Positions 1 through 3,918 of a stretch of 3,918 nucleotides of DNA are shown piece by piece. Within the stretch, counting starts at the first letter, position 1. Every line of letters begins with the position of its first letter. The position numbers were made by a program, and so were the translations under genes. Below the pieces are notes generated by a model. The model did no database searches. It saw nothing but the letters and a program-made list of their open reading frames with translations, and was not told the DNA's origin. This DNA comes from a virus (lineage: Duplodnaviria > Heunggongvirae > Uroviricota > Caudoviricetes): positions 1 to 3,918 of the IMG/VR virus record IMGVR_UViG_2636415416_000003. One strand, written 5' to 3'.

Positions 1-361
1 CGGAGGTGATGTCCCTTGCTTCATTCAGCAGGCTCTGGCGCTGTTTTTCTGCCAGCCGCAAATAATCAACAGGAACAGGAAGAACTTCGCCGTTTTTATA
101 ATACCAGCAGGCTTCAATGCCAAAGCCTTCCGGCAGTTCATCCACTTCCACAATGGTAAAACCAACGGGATAAAGACGGGATACGTCTTCCGCCATCGAA
201 TAAATCACGCCGGTTTCAGGATGCGTGCACAGCTTGTATTTCTTCGTGAATTTATCCAGGGATTCATAAAAGTCCTGCCCGTCTTCACTGCGGAAATACT
301 GAATGCCTTCACCATAAGGCATACCTTCAGGGTAATAACGCGTAACATTTCTGAGTTCCAT
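1..361 (-). CDS. Tail fiber assembly protein (Tfa/gpU-like), N-terminal ~120 aa; 3' end lies beyond the window start
   Basis: Seen: ATG at 361..359 on the minus strand, open frame to position 1 with no stop (my own translation: MELRNVTRYYPEGMPYGEGIQYFRSEDGQDFYESLDKFTKKYKLCTHPETGVIYSMAEDVSRLYPVGFTIVEVDELPEGFGIEACWYYKNGEVLPVPVDYLRLAEKQRQSLLNEARDITS...). Strong SD AAGGAG at 368..373 (minus), 6 nt before the ATG and 14 nt after the tail fiber stop. Established knowledge: position directly after a tail fiber gene and the motif layout (PxGF-hydrophobic-VEV, then W..NG.., then a Q/E/K-rich helix) match tail fiber assembly chaperones of Mu, lambda and e14-type phages. Not listed in the ORF track because it is truncated by the edge. 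Confidence 0.72.
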   Translation of the reverse strand, partial: MELRNVTRYYPEGMPYGEGIQYFRSEDGQDFYESLDKFTKKYKLCTHPETGVIYSMAEDVSRLYPVGFTIVEVDELPEGFGIEACWYYKNGEVLPVPVDYLRLAEKQRQSLLNEARDITS

Positions 362-375
362 TATTTTCTCCTTAA

Positions 376-1473
376 TTAACCGGATACAGAGCGCCATGCG
401 CCATTGATATAAATCTGAGCCTGTTTGTAATACACACCACCGATATTGTCTGCTGTATTTTTTCCCGTATCCTGAACATAAATGCCTGACAACTGGCAGC
501 CAGAAGGTGCGCGAAACCTCCAGGTAATTGTGGTACTGCCCGGGTTGTAAAACACCTCATTGGTGTACTGGAAATTACGCACAGCGCCGGGCTCGGTGGT
601 GTTGATGGTGATATCGCGGGTGCCATCAAACAGCACATTGTTAATCCTGCGGGCAGTCTGGAGTCTGGTTGCTGAGACCGCATTACCGTTTGCGGGGAGT
701 GCCCCCACGTCCGATGCTGTTGGTTTGTTTCTGGTATTGTACTCACGTCGCCATCCGGGAGAGTAGGCGTCTCCGTGGTTGATGTAGGTGAACTGTGAGC
801 TTGTCGTGCCGTTCGTGGCCGTTGTTGGTGTGGTCACCCTGATGGTCATGGCTGATTTGACGCCCATTACCTCAACAACTGCACCGGCCAACTGAATATT
901 GCCGCAGCCGGTATCGGTGATGATTTTATTGCCCGCATAAGCCCAGGAGCCTTTGCACATCCAGTAAGAATGGTTAAATGCTCCCTGTGAATCCAGCCAG
1001 TCAATAAACTGCGCCGTCGTCCAGGCTCCACTGTCGCCACCAATACTTACAGAACCACTGAAAGCACGGCCTGCTCCGATGTCTTTAACAAAATCGCTGG
1101 CGCTGTTTTTTCCGAGAATACCGCGAACAAAAGCACTGAGCGGCGTTAATGCCATTGTGTCTTTGCCGGTAAAATAAGGGAATGTATTATTCTGACCGGT
1201 TAATCCGGCAATAGCTCCGGCTGAACCACTGTTCGTAATAAACAGTTTTTTCAGCGCTGTCATAATCTGGTCGGTTGTGTTTTTATCCGGTTTGATATTT
1301 GCCTGCCGGAGTATTTCCAGTAATTCAGACTGAATAATATTAAACCAGTCCGGCCCCGGATACGTGGGCGGAATACCGTTCCCGCCTTCGGTGAAATAAA
1401 GCGTTGTTTTGCTTAATTCAGCCGCGACAGGTGGCATTACCGGCACACCCGTCGGGTTATCCACATAAAACAT
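376..1473 (-). CDS. Phage tail fiber protein (P2 gpH / Mu S family), 365 aa
   Basis: Seen: 365-aa ORF in the track; SD GGAG at 1482..1485 (minus), 8 nt before the ATG at 1473..1471. Translation begins MFYVDNPTGVPVMPPV and has a PGPDWFNIIQSELLEIL N-terminal region, an internal FPYFTGKD motif and a C-terminal YINGAW. From memory, P2 gpH contains RFPYFTGND and ends with YINGTW-containing sequence, and Mu S has a similar N-terminus. Established: gene order J-I-fiber-Tfa. Confidence 0.85.
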   Translation of the reverse strand: MFYVDNPTGVPVMPPVAAELSKTTLYFTEGGNGIPPTYPGPDWFNIIQSELLEILRQANIKPDKNTTDQIMTALKKLFITNSGSAGAIAGLTGQNNTFPYFTGKDTMALTPLSAFVRGILGKNSASDFVKDIGAGRAFSGSVSIGGDSGAWTTAQFIDWLDSQGAFNHSYWMCKGSWAYAGNKIITDTGCGNIQLAGAVVEVMGVKSAMTIRVTTPTTATNGTTSSQFTYINHGDAYSPGWRREYNTRNKPTASDVGALPANGNAVSATRLQTARRINNVLFDGTRDITINTTEPGAVRNFQYTNEVFYNPGSTTITWRFRAPSGCQLSGIYVQDTGKNTADNIGGVYYKQAQIYINGAWRSVSG

Positions 1474-1476
1474 AAA

Positions 1477-2061
1477 TTATTCTCCGGTGTAATAATATTC
1501 ATATTCCGTGCCCGCCAGCCGGTAATGCTTCAGCAGGCATTCCAGCTCACGGGTGCGTTCGCTGATTAATGGTGTCATGACGCCATCAATACAGGTAAAC
1601 CGCCCGGCATCTTTACCCGGGACGTTCACTTTCAGCATCCAGCGATACCGCGCCGGATGCAGCGGATACATGCAGTCGCGCAGACAGTGGTGCGGCAGAA
1701 CGGCTGTCACCTTAATGGTGAAGCCCAGCGCCGCTGCTGCGGCTTCAGTCTGCCAGGTTGCCAGCCCGCCCCTGCGACGGTATTTCTCCACCACGGCACG
1801 GCGGCGGGCTTCCCTGGTGGTGGGGGCAATTCCGCATTCCGGCAGCGCCAGATACTGCTCCCACTCCGGCAGCAGCCGGAGCGTGGTTTCCGGTCGCATC
1901 TCCACATGCAGACGCGAGGCGTCGTATTCAGTGCGGTTTAAACGTTCTGCAAGCGCCCTTAAAAAGCGGTTTAAATCCGCGTCGTTATCACGCGGCCATG
2001 CCTTACCCCGTGGCATGACCTGTTGCAGTGCGGCCAGCCATTCCGTCACGCTGTGAGCCAT
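1477..2061 (-). CDS. ymfQ: Phage tail protein I-like (DUF2313; Mu gp48 / E. coli e14 YmfQ family), 194 aa
   Basis: Seen: 194-aa ORF; ATG at 2061..2059 preceded by GGAGG (2066..2070, minus); start overlaps the 3' end of the J-like gene by 16 nt; stop TAA lies 3 nt before the tail fiber ATG. Translation (MAHSVTEWLAALQQVMPRGKAWPRD ... LLPEWEQYLALPECG ... RRRGGLATWQ) matches what I recall of the DUF2313 family and of e14 YmfQ, which is also 194 aa. The symbol is given by family resemblance and is from memory; the gene need not be the K-12 orthologue. Confidence 0.85.
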   Translation of the reverse strand: MAHSVTEWLAALQQVMPRGKAWPRDNDADLNRFLRALAERLNRTEYDASRLHVEMRPETTLRLLPEWEQYLALPECGIAPTTREARRRAVVEKYRRRGGLATWQTEAAAAALGFTIKVTAVLPHHCLRDCMYPLHPARYRWMLKVNVPGKDAGRFTCIDGVMTPLISERTRELECLLKHYRLAGTEYEYYYTGE

Positions 2062-3122
2062 GTCACCTCCCCGATGGTGATAAGCTCATCCACATCACTG
2101 GTGGTGTCCTCCCCGATGTTAAGGAAGTAATCCGTGATGCCGGACGTCATACCGATGGCCGTGCGCAGCGAGGACACCGGCAGCGTCTGACCGGGTGCCA
2201 GTGTCTTCTGTAACGCGGTCAGGTTTGCCCGGACGGCGCTCCTGTTCGCCAGGCTGTCCGGTGTCAGACGGATGGATATGCTGACTTTCTTCAGCCTGAC
2301 CTGTACCGGCCAGACCTCAATGCCGCCCGGTTTACCCACCATCACGCCCGTGGCCGGGTGTTTGTGGCAGAACAGATACTGCTCCATTGTCTTCAGGTCT
2401 TCGCGGGTTGGCACGATGTTTTCCCGGTCATCATAAAGCCATGCCAGCCCGACCGTGCCGGGGCCGTGCCATGCATCCCACGCCCACGCGCGGCTGACGC
2501 CCGGCACTTCACGCGCCCATATCACGTAGTCATGCAACGCGCCGCCTGTCGGTGGATTGCGGCGCACATACAGCAGACGGTCCAGCAGCGCTGCGATGGA
2601 TTCAGTGTCTGCGCCACCGGTGATGCCACCTTCAGCCACCGCGCCTGTGCTGGCCGTTCCGGGCAGCGGGGACAGCAGGGTGAGTACGGCACCGGCAGCA
2701 AGATTGCCCTCCACACCGGCTTCTTCAGCCTGCACGATGACGGTGACCTCGCCGTCCTGCACCTCGCCGGACGTGAGTACCTGATACACCTGGTTCGTGT
2801 CGGACTGCATCCGGGTTTCTGCCGGAAGGGGGGACTGACTGGTGAAGGTCACCCGCCCGCTGGCAAAGGTGGCCTGCTTGCGGATAACGCCTTCATACTT
2901 TGCTGTTTTGATAATGGTTTCATCATCAGACGTGGTGGACGGGATTATCTGGTCCTTAATCCAGCTCTGATGGTCGTATAAATCCCGGACCTGACTGCTG
3001 AATGACACGTTCAGCGCCTGCTCAACACTGACAGGCGGCAGCTTTTGCAGGCCGAGTTCATACGCAATATCTTTTTCGCCGTCGGCAATCAGTTTGCCCA
3101 GCGTGGGGATTTCATACGGCAT
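2046..3122 (-). CDS. Baseplate assembly protein J-like (Mu gp47 / P2 gpJ family), 358 aa, apparently intact
   Basis: Seen: 358-aa ORF; ATG at 3122..3120 with SD GGGAGG at 3132..3137 (minus), 9 nt upstream. Translation contains glycine/alanine-rich segments (AEGGITGGADTESIAALLDRLLYVRRNPPTGGALHDYVIWAREVPGVSRAWAW) typical of baseplate J proteins. Established: it sits immediately upstream of the gpI-like gene, as in Mu (gp47-gp48-S-U) and e14 (jayE-ymfQ-stfP-tfaP). Confidence 0.85.
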   Translation of the reverse strand: MPYEIPTLGKLIADGEKDIAYELGLQKLPPVSVEQALNVSFSSQVRDLYDHQSWIKDQIIPSTTSDDETIIKTAKYEGVIRKQATFASGRVTFTSQSPLPAETRMQSDTNQVYQVLTSGEVQDGEVTVIVQAEEAGVEGNLAAGAVLTLLSPLPGTASTGAVAEGGITGGADTESIAALLDRLLYVRRNPPTGGALHDYVIWAREVPGVSRAWAWDAWHGPGTVGLAWLYDDRENIVPTREDLKTMEQYLFCHKHPATGVMVGKPGGIEVWPVQVRLKKVSISIRLTPDSLANRSAVRANLTALQKTLAPGQTLPVSSLRTAIGMTSGITDYFLNIGEDTTSDVDELITIGEVTWLTA

Positions 3123-3184
3123 TAATGGTGGCCTCCCATCGACGGGTGATTTCGATTCTGAGTGTGGTTTTGTCCGGGCGGGTT

Positions 3185-3532
3185 ATGCAAACAGCAACCA
3201 AACCATCAAACAAGGCCTCAAAAGCTAATGAGTTAATGAAAATAATGGATTCTCTAAGCGAACAAGAAAAAGAGATCGTGATCCATACGCTCAAACGAAA
3301 AGGTGTTGAAAAGTTGCTCGAATTTTGCAGCCAAGAAAACCAAGAGTTGATTAGTTTAACGGGTATTCGAAGATTAGCTGCTTTAAGCCTAAATAACCTG
3401 TCAGAACAAAAGGTTAGAGAGATTTTGGCGGGAAATGAAGCTGAGGCCGATCTCATCCAACTAACCAACAAGGCAGTTAGCATAGCTGTGCTTAACTTAC
3501 TTGGTCCATTTCTACAACTTCTGATAAGCTAG
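3185..3532 (+). CDS. Hypothetical small protein in AT-rich segment (115 aa from ATG 3185; 98 aa if the in-frame ATG at 3236 is used); no family recognised
   Basis: Seen: the plus-strand ORF 3125..3532 in the track; its first 20 codons lie in GC-rich sequence overlapping the J start on the other strand, so I place the start at the first ATG inside the AT-rich block (3185) or at 3236. Both have only weak SD-like sequences. Translation is K/E/Q/L-rich with a hydrophobic C-terminal stretch (AVSIAVLNLLGPFLQLLIS) and uses AT-rich codons (aga, cga, tta, cta, ata). The overlapping minus-strand ORF 3112..3483 is S/F/L-rich and looks like an antisense shadow. Coding status is inferred from composition only. 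Confidence 0.45.
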   Translation: MQTATKPSNKASKANELMKIMDSLSEQEKEIVIHTLKRKGVEKLLEFCSQENQELISLTGIRRLAALSLNNLSEQKVREILAGNEAEADLIQLTNKAVSIAVLNLLGPFLQLLIS

Positions 3533-3571
3533 TTTTAAAAGCCTTTAAAAGGTCAAAATAAACAAGACGCT

Positions 3572-3736
3572 TTATCTTGAATGTTTTATTGTTCTGAACA
3601 AACTAAACGGCCCTTGCCCATTTTATCTTGAATACAACTAGTAGCTAAGTTATTGAATCCAATCAAATCCCGTCTTTTTTAATCTCTTCCCGGTTATCTT
3701 GAATAAATTACCTAGTCATAGTCACTTAATCTTGAT
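3572..3736. repeat. Array of short direct repeats: exact 11-bp TTATCTTGAAT three times plus one degenerate copy
   Basis: Seen directly: TTATCTTGAAT at 3572..3582, 3623..3633 and 3694..3704 (the first two share 12 bp, TTTATCTTGAAT), and a variant TTAATCTTGAT at 3726..3736 sharing the ATCTTGA core. Start-to-start spacings are 51, 71 and about 32-33 bp, close to whole numbers of helical turns. All copies are in the same orientation, in AT-rich non-coding DNA downstream of the small ORF. Confidence 0.6.
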
Positions 3737-3820
3737 GTCGCGTTACTGGATATTAATGATGTTGGGGGGCTGGCTGATTTTGTGGTGGAGTGGATGCAAA
3801 ATCAGGACGGATAAGCAAGA

Positions 3821-3858
3821 GTAGGCTGGATCAGACGCAGCCAGCGTCGCATCCGACC
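3821..3858. repeat. REP-like (repetitive extragenic palindromic) element
   Basis: Seen: GTAGGCTGGATCAGACGCAGCCAGCGTCGCATCCGACC. Its reverse complement (GGTCGGATGCGACGCTGGCTGCGTCTGATCCAGCCTAC) closely resembles the enterobacterial REP consensus GCCTGATGCGACGCTGGCGCGTCTTATCAGGCCTAC, recalled from memory. The preceding CAGGACGGATAAG (3803..3815) may be a partial second unit. Confidence 0.6.
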
Positions 3859-3872
3859 TTTTTCTGCACCAG

Positions 3873-3903
3873 CGCAAAAAGGCCCAGTCTTCCGACCGGG
3901 CCT
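3873..3903 (-). terminator. Rho-independent terminator for a minus-strand transcript entering from the right
   Basis: Seen: on the minus strand GGCCCGGTC-GGAA-GACTGGGCC followed by TTTTTGCG, a 9-bp GC-rich stem (one G.U pair) with a GNRA-type tetraloop and a U5 tract. On the plus strand the stem is followed by the weaker T-rich TTCTGCTTAATTT, so some bidirectional activity is possible. Confidence 0.6.
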
Positions 3904-3918
3904 TCTGCTTAATTTGAT

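Follow-up and report, generated by a model that had tools for sequence, protein, structure and literature searches.

A 23-codon gp46 remnant at a probable internal deletion scar in a defective Mu-like prophage of Shigella dysenteriae

In Mu-like tails the gene for baseplate protein J is preceded by a further baseplate gene whose end overlaps the J start; what, then, became of that gene at a locus in which J lies close to an AT-rich block? We addressed this question in a window of 3,918 nucleotides, i.e., the whole stretch of DNA analysed here, which corresponds to positions 1 to 3,918 of the IMG/VR record IMGVR_UViG_2636415416_000003. The original prediction, made from the letters alone, held that the short GC-rich stretch upstream of J is the retained 3' end of a gp46/W-type gene whose body was lost at a breakpoint near position 3185. 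Our collective results suggest, with a probability of about 0.93, that the scar is an internal deletion of ~27.5 kb within a defective Mu-like prophage of Shigella dysenteriae.

The gp46 remnant and the surviving tail genes

The minus-strand frame that runs into J is open from 3483 to a TGA at 3114..3112 (ORF 3112..3483, 123 aa, starting with ATG), while J starts with an ATG at 3122..3120, so that the stop/start overlap amounts to 11 nt (3112-3122). The same 11-nt overlap is found in E. coli STEC719 (L001; gp46 CDS 8824-9276, J CDS 7758-8834) and in E. coli RM9088 (L002), where a 150-aa gp46 overlaps J. Thus, the predicted open frame of ~60 bp, its stop and its coupling to J are confirmed and match the arrangement of intact prophages. 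In the 63 nt directly upstream of the J ATG (3123-3185) the G+C content is 54%, and over 3186-3724 it is 36.7%.

Over 3112-3185 the window is identical, at 74 of 74 nt and 23 of 23 codons, to the 3' end of the intact 150-aa gp46 gene carried by the contigs L005 and L006. What survives of the gp46-family baseplate wedge gene (minus strand) is its final 23 codons and the stop, together with 2 nt of the codon before them. Its translation, TRPDKTTLRIEITRRWEATINAV, had been quoted correctly in the original prediction; gp46 of L005 and L006 terminates in ...VVLTRPDKTTLRIEITRRWEATINAV followed by the stop codon, and the gp46 C-termini of STEC719 and RM9088 agree with the remnant peptide at 22 of 23 residues. 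Because of the complete nucleotide and codon identity to L006, we regard the 23-codon peptide as an authentic gp46 C-terminus and place the breakpoint at 3185/3186. The prediction that ~23 codons of a gp46/W-type gene were retained, with the body lost near 3185, is therefore borne out, the homology ending at 3185 and the peptide being identical to gp46 C-termini rather than dissimilar to them.

The family assignment comes from the intact gp46 of the relatives, which matches PF07409 (E=3.8e-32), PHROG 180 ('baseplate wedge subunit') and PDB 9KI1 ('Baseplate protein gp46', E=6e-24, residues 5-139); the PF07409 profile spans residues 29-133 of the intact protein, and the 23-codon remnant is too short to score alone. 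A complete coding sequence for the wedge subunit is not present in the window, 127 of the 150 gp46 codons being missing. Hence, judged from the alignments, 3112-3185 is best described as a pseudogene fragment of non-functional character and not as a gp46 gene. We conclude that the 23-codon tail has no function and that its survival is an accident of the breakpoint position.

The genes that follow on the minus strand are preserved. The J gene (Mu gp47; 2046..3122, 358 aa) is intact (PF04865 Baseplate_J, E=8.7e-60) and has a ribosome-binding site, GGGAGG, 9 nt upstream of its ATG, just as the earlier claim of an intact J with a good Shine-Dalgarno sequence had stated. The identical J protein is encoded within the intact tail modules of L005 and L006, and the closest J protein of an isolated phage, that of Klebsiella phage Kp4866-3, is 57% identical. 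The J gene is followed by an intact baseplate gene of the Mu gp48/YmfQ family (1477..2061, 194 aa; PF10076 Phage_Mu_Gp48, E=3.4e-30) and by a tail fibre gene of 365 aa (376..1473), which shows a weak Gp34_trimer match and is annotated 'phage tail protein' in intact relatives. Finally, the 5' part of a tail fibre assembly gene (Tfa/Mu U-like; 1..361) runs off the left edge of the window. In the source chromosome (L003), where a position equals 13123 minus the window position, the fibre gene occupies 11650-12747 and the full tfa gene 12762-13292 (176 aa, PF02413 Caudo_TAP). Past the window, L003 continues with the rest of tfa, a second fibre gene, a DUF4376 gene, com and mom; there, Zn_ribbon_Com and Mom were matched together with Caudo_TAP. 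Among phage records, the only near-identity match of the window is one of 85% to the tfa region of a Rac-like phage.

The AT-rich block, the phage terminus and the chromosomal flanks

The frame of the gp46 remnant continues past 3185 into what had been described as an S/F/L-rich antisense stretch, and this description proved apt: the stretch is the antisense of a plus-strand repressor remnant and matches no family. The remnant is a 5'-truncated Mu-type repressor gene (c; 3188..3532, plus strand) that specifies the C-terminal 99 residues and an extension of 15 codons. Within the plus-strand ORF 3185-3532 (115 aa), 93 of 99 residues are identical to residues 70-168 of the 168-aa repressor of RM9088, and the remnant covers positions 71-176 of the 176-position PHROG 7148 profile ('transcriptional repressor'). 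Relative to RM9088, 10 bp are deleted at about 3500; the normal stop is thereby lost and the frame is prolonged by the 15 extra codons. The ATG at 3185-3187 is a product of the junction. Missing from the remnant are the N-terminal DNA-binding domain (~69 residues) and the promoter/operator region.

The identity of the full-length protein is evident in RM9088, where the 168-aa 'DNA-binding protein' adjoins a Ner-like HTH gene, MuA and MuB. It matches PF02316 (Mu DNA-binding domain, E=1.7e-9) and PHROG 7148 (E=4e-63), and its residues 7-59 match the DNA-binding domain of Mu c (1G4D/1QPM, E=4.9e-6) and the N-terminal domain of MuA (1TNS, E=2.6e-5). The repressor of Mu and SfMu lies at the left end of the genome and reads outward (PMC4406740). 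The place and orientation of the remnant fit a Mu-type repressor of this kind, the defining domain being seen only in the RM9088 homologue. Relatives of the block are few: 3188-3720 alone has a full-length match in only one of 5,426 complete E. coli genomes, RM9088, and no match among phage records; no closer full-length relatives of the repressor were found in species-representative genomes, and the sole IMG/VR match is the same scar.

Between the repressor remnant and the chromosome lies the left terminus of the phage (attL region; 3533..3720, minus strand), delimited from three independent insertions and an empty site. Here ATTCAAGATAA is present three times without mismatch on the minus strand, at 3694-3704, 3623-3633 and 3572-3582 (TTATCTTGAAT at 3572, 3623 and 3694), against 0.03 expected by chance, and these copies are conserved in RM9088. 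The complete 35.2-kb prophage of STEC346 carries three copies of the motif at its left end and three in inverted orientation at its right end, with no further copy in 40 kb. This prophage splits yhfX, and comparison with the empty yhfX site puts each of its termini 16 nt beyond the outermost motif copy and reveals a duplication of ATTC. The arrangement is that of L1-L3 and R1-R3 in Mu, and the three copies in the window are, by inference, binding sites for the transposase that correspond to Mu L1-L3. Mu-like prophages of this group are mosaic, in that different repressors are found alongside the same terminal 100 bp. Taken together, sequence comparison identifies the AT-rich block as apparently the left end of the Mu-like prophage itself and not foreign DNA.

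The terminus is followed by GTCA (3721..3724), which matches neither the phage end nor E. coli mobB (GCCG in DH5alpha), and then by the last 29 codons and the stop of chromosomal mobB (3725..3814, plus strand), which match the end of the DH5alpha mobB CDS (L009 1501-1590). The prophage is therefore inserted within mobB, 90 nt before its stop. The remainder of the window (3815..3918) is the spacer between mobB and rrf with the end-of-operon hairpin of a complete rRNA operon; the 5S gene begins one base past the window (5S rRNA, L003 9089-9204; window position 3918 is L003 9205). To the right of the window, both L003 and a second locus, L004, carry 5S, 23S and 16S rRNA and then hemG, trkH and pepQ, with no phage genes in the 9 kb beyond. 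At the opposite end of the element, homology of L003 to STEC719 stops 37 nt past the mom stop, within the terminator hairpin; from there an IS4 copy takes over (L003 16252-17677). This copy has intact inverted repeats and no flanking duplication, typA/glnA lie beyond it in place of the rest of mobB and mobA, and the right phage terminus, expected after the mom terminator, is absent from L003. All told, the element keeps ~0.5 kb from its left end and ~6.3 kb from its right arm. The original prediction of a tail module truncated upstream of J stands as far as the body of gp46 is concerned; it does not stand for everything upstream, for the prophage left end and the c remnant were retained.

Origin and recurrence of the junction

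Homology on the tail side to intact E. coli Mu-like prophages extends from base 1 to exactly 3185, among the matches listed in a megablast search of 5,426 complete E. coli genomes, and the final feature under those alignments is annotated 'phage GP46 family protein'. Alignment to intact Mu-like prophages, as the original prediction had proposed, thus placed the breakpoint at 3185/3186. Homology on the repressor side starts at 3188. The two bases in between (3186..3187, TG) agree with neither parent, so far as the available relatives represent them, and form, with A3185, an ATG. Since the closest full-length repressor and left end, those of RM9088, are ~93% identical, the junction can be placed only to 3185-3188.

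The two segments of the window are collinear and oriented as in one prophage when RM9088 is taken as the reference, and they have diverged from it to the same extent (92.8% identity for 3188-3720 against L002 38165-38707, 92.7% for the tail genes). The interval between them in RM9088 measures 30.2 kb, including a 2.7 kb IS66-family (ISCro1) insertion, which leaves ~27.5 kb as the missing interval; the coordinates of STEC346 also give ~27.5 kb. Given this shared order, orientation and degree of divergence, a single internal deletion is the simplest history and probably made the scar. As to the route, the junction lies within c and gp46, away from any phage terminus, and IS sequence is absent at 3185-3188; hence, neither the phage transposase nor an IS is likely to have made it, and we rejected transposase-mediated and IS-mediated deletion. 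Illegitimate recombination would be the plausible route.

According to this scenario, a Mu-like prophage of ~35 kb would have inserted into mobB, 90 nt before its stop, and a deletion of ~27.5 kb would then have joined c (~69 codons in, reading leftward) to gp46 (23 codons before its end). The deletion would have removed the DNA-binding domain of c with the operator/promoter region, ner, the transposase genes A and B, the early, middle (mor) and late regulatory genes, the lysis genes, all head genes, the sheath, tube, tape-measure, hub and spike genes, and the first 127 codons of gp46. Left behind, in order, would be the left terminus with its three sites, the c remnant, the gp46 remnant, gp47 (J), gp48, the fibre gene and tfa, after which the second fibre gene, the DUF4376 gene, com and mom come in the source chromosome. 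The 123-aa minus-strand ORF at 3112-3483 would be a chance fusion of the gp46 tail with the antisense of the repressor remnant. Consistently with these proposed losses, MuA (DDE transposase) and MuB (ATPase) are absent from the locus, and their genes in RM9088 and STEC346 fall within the interval lost here.

The junction is not confined to one record. The window is found letter for letter in four assemblies, CP027027.1 (a closed 5.04-Mb chromosome), UYIS01000011.1, AMJQ01000104.1 and AAMJ02000094.1, the last of which belongs to Shigella dysenteriae 1012 (AAMJ00000000 / GCA_000168075.1), and an IMG/VR contig carries the same junction, which makes at least five records in all. Because at least five records contain the identical scar, we consider the junction real; an assembly artefact was rejected, given that five independent records share it. 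The exact J protein occurs in 42 blocks of the sequence collection, in 29 of which the longest carrier is only 2-5 kb. An exact-match scan of species-representative genomes for the 33-nt junction returned no match.

Could the junction have another origin? The abrupt change of composition at 3185 might equally be an insertion boundary, and on this sole ground the AT-rich block could be taken for a small insertion in gp46, with the 5' part of gp46, gp45, gp44, and the tube and sheath genes continuing rightward. However, what follows rightward in L003 and L004 is the terminus, the 3' end of mobB, rRNA, hemG, trkH and pepQ, without a phage gene in 9 kb, and the block itself is Mu-like prophage DNA from the opposite genome end. 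Further tail genes to the right, which the original prediction had named as the finding that would speak for an insertion, are excluded because the end of mobB and then the rRNA operon come after the phage terminus; the chromosomal context already refutes this reading, and the chance that it is correct is next to nil. An origin in which the junction joins two elements, or results from a rearrangement other than a deletion (recombination between co-resident Mu-like prophages, or an inversion with the reciprocal product elsewhere), is unlikely but deserves more weight. The genome is indeed rearranged nearby, as the IS4 copy at the mom end lacks a duplication and is adjoined by typA/glnA where the rest of mobB and mobA would be expected, and the group is mosaic, the same terminal 100 bp being found with different repressors. 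However, both sides of the junction are equally diverged from RM9088 and collinear in the orientation of a single prophage, an IS and a repeat are both absent at the junction, the breakpoint falls within both genes and not at the end of a transposon and is thus no transposase product, and an exact-protein look-up found J at a single place per complete genome.

A different objection concerns the 123-aa ORF at 3112-3483, which might be a real, expressed fusion gene whose translation is coupled into J and which keeps the tail genes expressed. Its frame is open, begins with an ATG and has the native coupled end with J, and J, gp48 and the fibre gene are intact. Nevertheless, its first 100 codons are antisense to the repressor remnant, which is 94% identical in protein to its homologue, and the plus strand is thereby marked as the coding one. 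Moreover, the ORF has no Pfam or PHROG match, the consensus scan found no promoter-like site for it, and J would have no partner structure, as the locus is devoid of hub, tube and sheath. We consider a genuine fusion gene extremely unlikely, and retain an internal deletion as the explanation of the whole scar.

Expression, implications and comparison with known systems

The original prediction allowed that the tail genes could still be expressed if a promoter existed in the AT-rich block. This suggestion found no support: in a consensus scan of 2900-3918, which weak or non-sigma-70 promoters could escape, no sigma-70-like promoters or terminators were seen on either strand. The native tail promoter region and Mor, as positioned in the relatives, fall inside the deleted interval. 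So does the gene for the late activator C, which in Mu has a regulatory role. The consensus scan and the missing genes together suggest that the remnant genes are not expressed, and we conclude that the gp46 fragment is an inert scar. The rRNA operon runs in the same direction as the tail genes, and read-through transcription from it into them is conceivable.

Why, then, are the J, gp48 and fibre ORFs intact? L006 is 100% identical over 1,820 nt, and because of this identity a recent deletion appears to be the most likely reason, selection being the less likely explanation. Mu 'vir' repressors are dominant-negative and drive degradation of the wild-type repressor. Possibly, the repressor remnant (3185-3532) could be expressed as a DNA-binding-deficient protein that keeps the oligomerisation part and has an altered C-terminus, much like these 'vir' repressors, or read-through from the rRNA operon might maintain the J, gp48 and fibre genes for use by another Mu-like phage; we consider this very unlikely. 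If the remnant were expressed in this way, phages that share its rare immunity type, whether incoming or co-resident, could find their immunity disturbed.

Several practical points follow for those who use these records. Two ORFs that have been called in public genomes should not be annotated as genuine genes: that of 123 aa on the minus strand is a chance fusion, and that of 115 aa on the plus strand is a truncated repressor. The locus, which IMG/VR lists as a viral contig, is a grounded prophage incapable of transposing, lysing the cell or building a tail. The scar provides a clean lineage-specific marker common to several S. dysenteriae assemblies, and the end motifs are now defined for a group of E. 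coli/Shigella Mu-like phages without a close cultured representative. The 'grounding' of prophages by deletion and IS activity is well known (PMC6379469), and remnants of Mu-like prophages have been described as frequent in Shigella (PMC4406740). The scar is ordinary prophage decay, and it leaves the current understanding of phage or host biology unchanged.

Compared with Mu itself, the parental gene of the remnant is a clear member of the gp46 family (gene V product, PF07409), located directly upstream of J/gp47 and overlapping it, whereas the window keeps only the last 23 of 150 codons and lacks the start codon, the promoter and the core of the wedge domain. Similarly, the RM9088 homologue shares with Mu repressor c (1G4D, 1QPM) the N-terminal winged-helix domain, the left-end position and the outward reading, whereas the copy in the window has lost that domain and has a C-terminus altered and extended by the 10-bp deletion. 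The surviving genes show the order of a Mu-type block, i.e., gp46-gp47-gp48, fibre and Tfa, then com-mom, and on gene content the element is a remnant of a Mu-like transposable prophage and not an active member of that class. It is none of Mu, D108 and SfMu: its left end matches no phage record, and its closest isolated-phage J protein is only 57% identical.

The prophage e14 of E. coli K-12 keeps a baseplate-J/gp48(YmfQ)-like/fibre/Tfa block without sheath, tube or head genes. The original prediction of a J-I-fiber-Tfa remnant like e14 is, for the survivors, a fair analogy, both being remnant-type baseplate-J/fibre/Tfa blocks. It fails as a classification: e14 belongs to the lambdoid-type integrating elements and has both an integrase and an invertase, neither of which was called in the 21-kb L003 locus, whereas the present element is Mu-like rather than of e14 or P2 type, with a Mu-type terminus and a repressor remnant, and also keeps the second fibre gene, the DUF4376 gene, com and mom. 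The nearest counterparts are the Mu-like prophages of E. coli (RM9088, STEC346 and STEC719), to which the window segments are 92-94% identical in DNA and which share the gene order of left end, repressor, ner, MuA, MuB ... gp44-gp48, fibre, tfa, com and mom; those prophages differ in being ~35 kb long and essentially complete. In its reduced state the element resembles the SfMu remnants of Shigella flexneri, which are likewise prophage remnants that retain the baseplate-J/gp48/fibre/Tfa block.

Open reading frame across the deletion junction and the repressor remnant

The plus-strand ATG at window positions 3185-3187 is a product of the deletion junction itself, at which the repressor gene c has been joined to gp46. 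The same frame stays open further back, to an ATG at 3125 (ORF 3125-3532), where it is antisense to the gp46 remnant and to the start of J, the baseplate gp47 gene. In public genomes, gene callers report the 115-aa form of this ORF, without a family assignment. Among its fragments of viral genomes, IMG/VR includes a 6.6-kb contig with the identical deletion scar (L011, IMGVR_UViG_2874920711_000007); this contig represents the grounded prophage remnant, not a virus.

The 3' end of the repressor ORF is altered as well. Compared with the prophage of E. coli RM9088, it has lost its stop codon and gained 15 codons (...SIAVLNLLGPFLQLLIS), owing to a deletion of 10 bp that lies between two short repeats, GCTAGC (window about 3495-3532). 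This extension looks secondary, because the PHROG repressor profile ends at the same point as the RM9088 protein. The repressor (immunity) type is rare: among the 5,426 complete genomes of E. coli searched, a single one has the segment 3186-3617 whole, and the type was absent from the phage records and species-representative genomes searched. Unlike the repressor, the terminal 100 bp are common to six other E. coli records, which carry different repressors.

Chromosomal surroundings of the remnant

The prophage end cuts mobB 90 nt ahead of its stop codon, so that window 3725-3814 holds the last 29 codons only; neither the remainder of mobB nor mobA is present on the far side of the remnant in the source chromosome locus (L003). 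Four nucleotides, GTCA (3721-3724), separate the conserved end of the phage from the mobB homology and match neither of the two; with them, the minus strand reads TGACTA-TGACTA in tandem. Their source may be a target copy that has since diverged, or else a small duplication. The left end of the RM9088 prophage truncates nrfA (L002 38695-38711), and the CDS as annotated there reaches its stop codon only inside the phage terminus.

The rRNA operon directly to the right of the window (L003 4104-9204) and the remnant tail genes share one direction of transcription. [quoted passage not shown] Given this arrangement, transcriptional read-through from the operon into J is conceivable.

On the other side, a 1426-bp IS4 copy with intact terminal inverted repeats (L003 16252-17677) interrupts the terminator hairpin of mom within its loop. 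No target duplication flanks this copy, and typA and glnA, which come next, have their order inverted with respect to E. coli. Taken together, these features indicate that an IS4-mediated inversion or deletion took the right terminus of the prophage away from this locus.

End motifs and module mixing among relatives

In their tail, com and mom genes, the STEC719 and STEC346 prophages of E. coli both share about 90-94% identity with the window, whereas their right ends (L001 2061-2125 and L010 36500-36590, respectively) are unlike. Hence one and the same late region occurs with differing transposition modules in these Mu-like prophages. The STEC346 right end is of the ATTCAAGATAA type, an 11-mer (phage orientation) that marks the ends of the E. 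coli/Shigella Mu-like phage group to which our prophage belongs. Copies lie at window positions 3572-3582, 3623-3633 and 3694-3704, in the left end of the prophage; the complete STEC346 prophage has three at its left end (L010 1363-1496) and three, inverted, at its right end (36508-36575), with 16 nt between each terminus and the outermost copy. The STEC719 right end (...CGTTTTTCGTGCGCCGCTTCA) is nearly identical to the R-end of classical phage Mu. The STEC346 termini are TA...TA, compared with TG...CA in Mu, and the flanking duplication is apparently 4 bp (ATTC) rather than the 5 bp of Mu.
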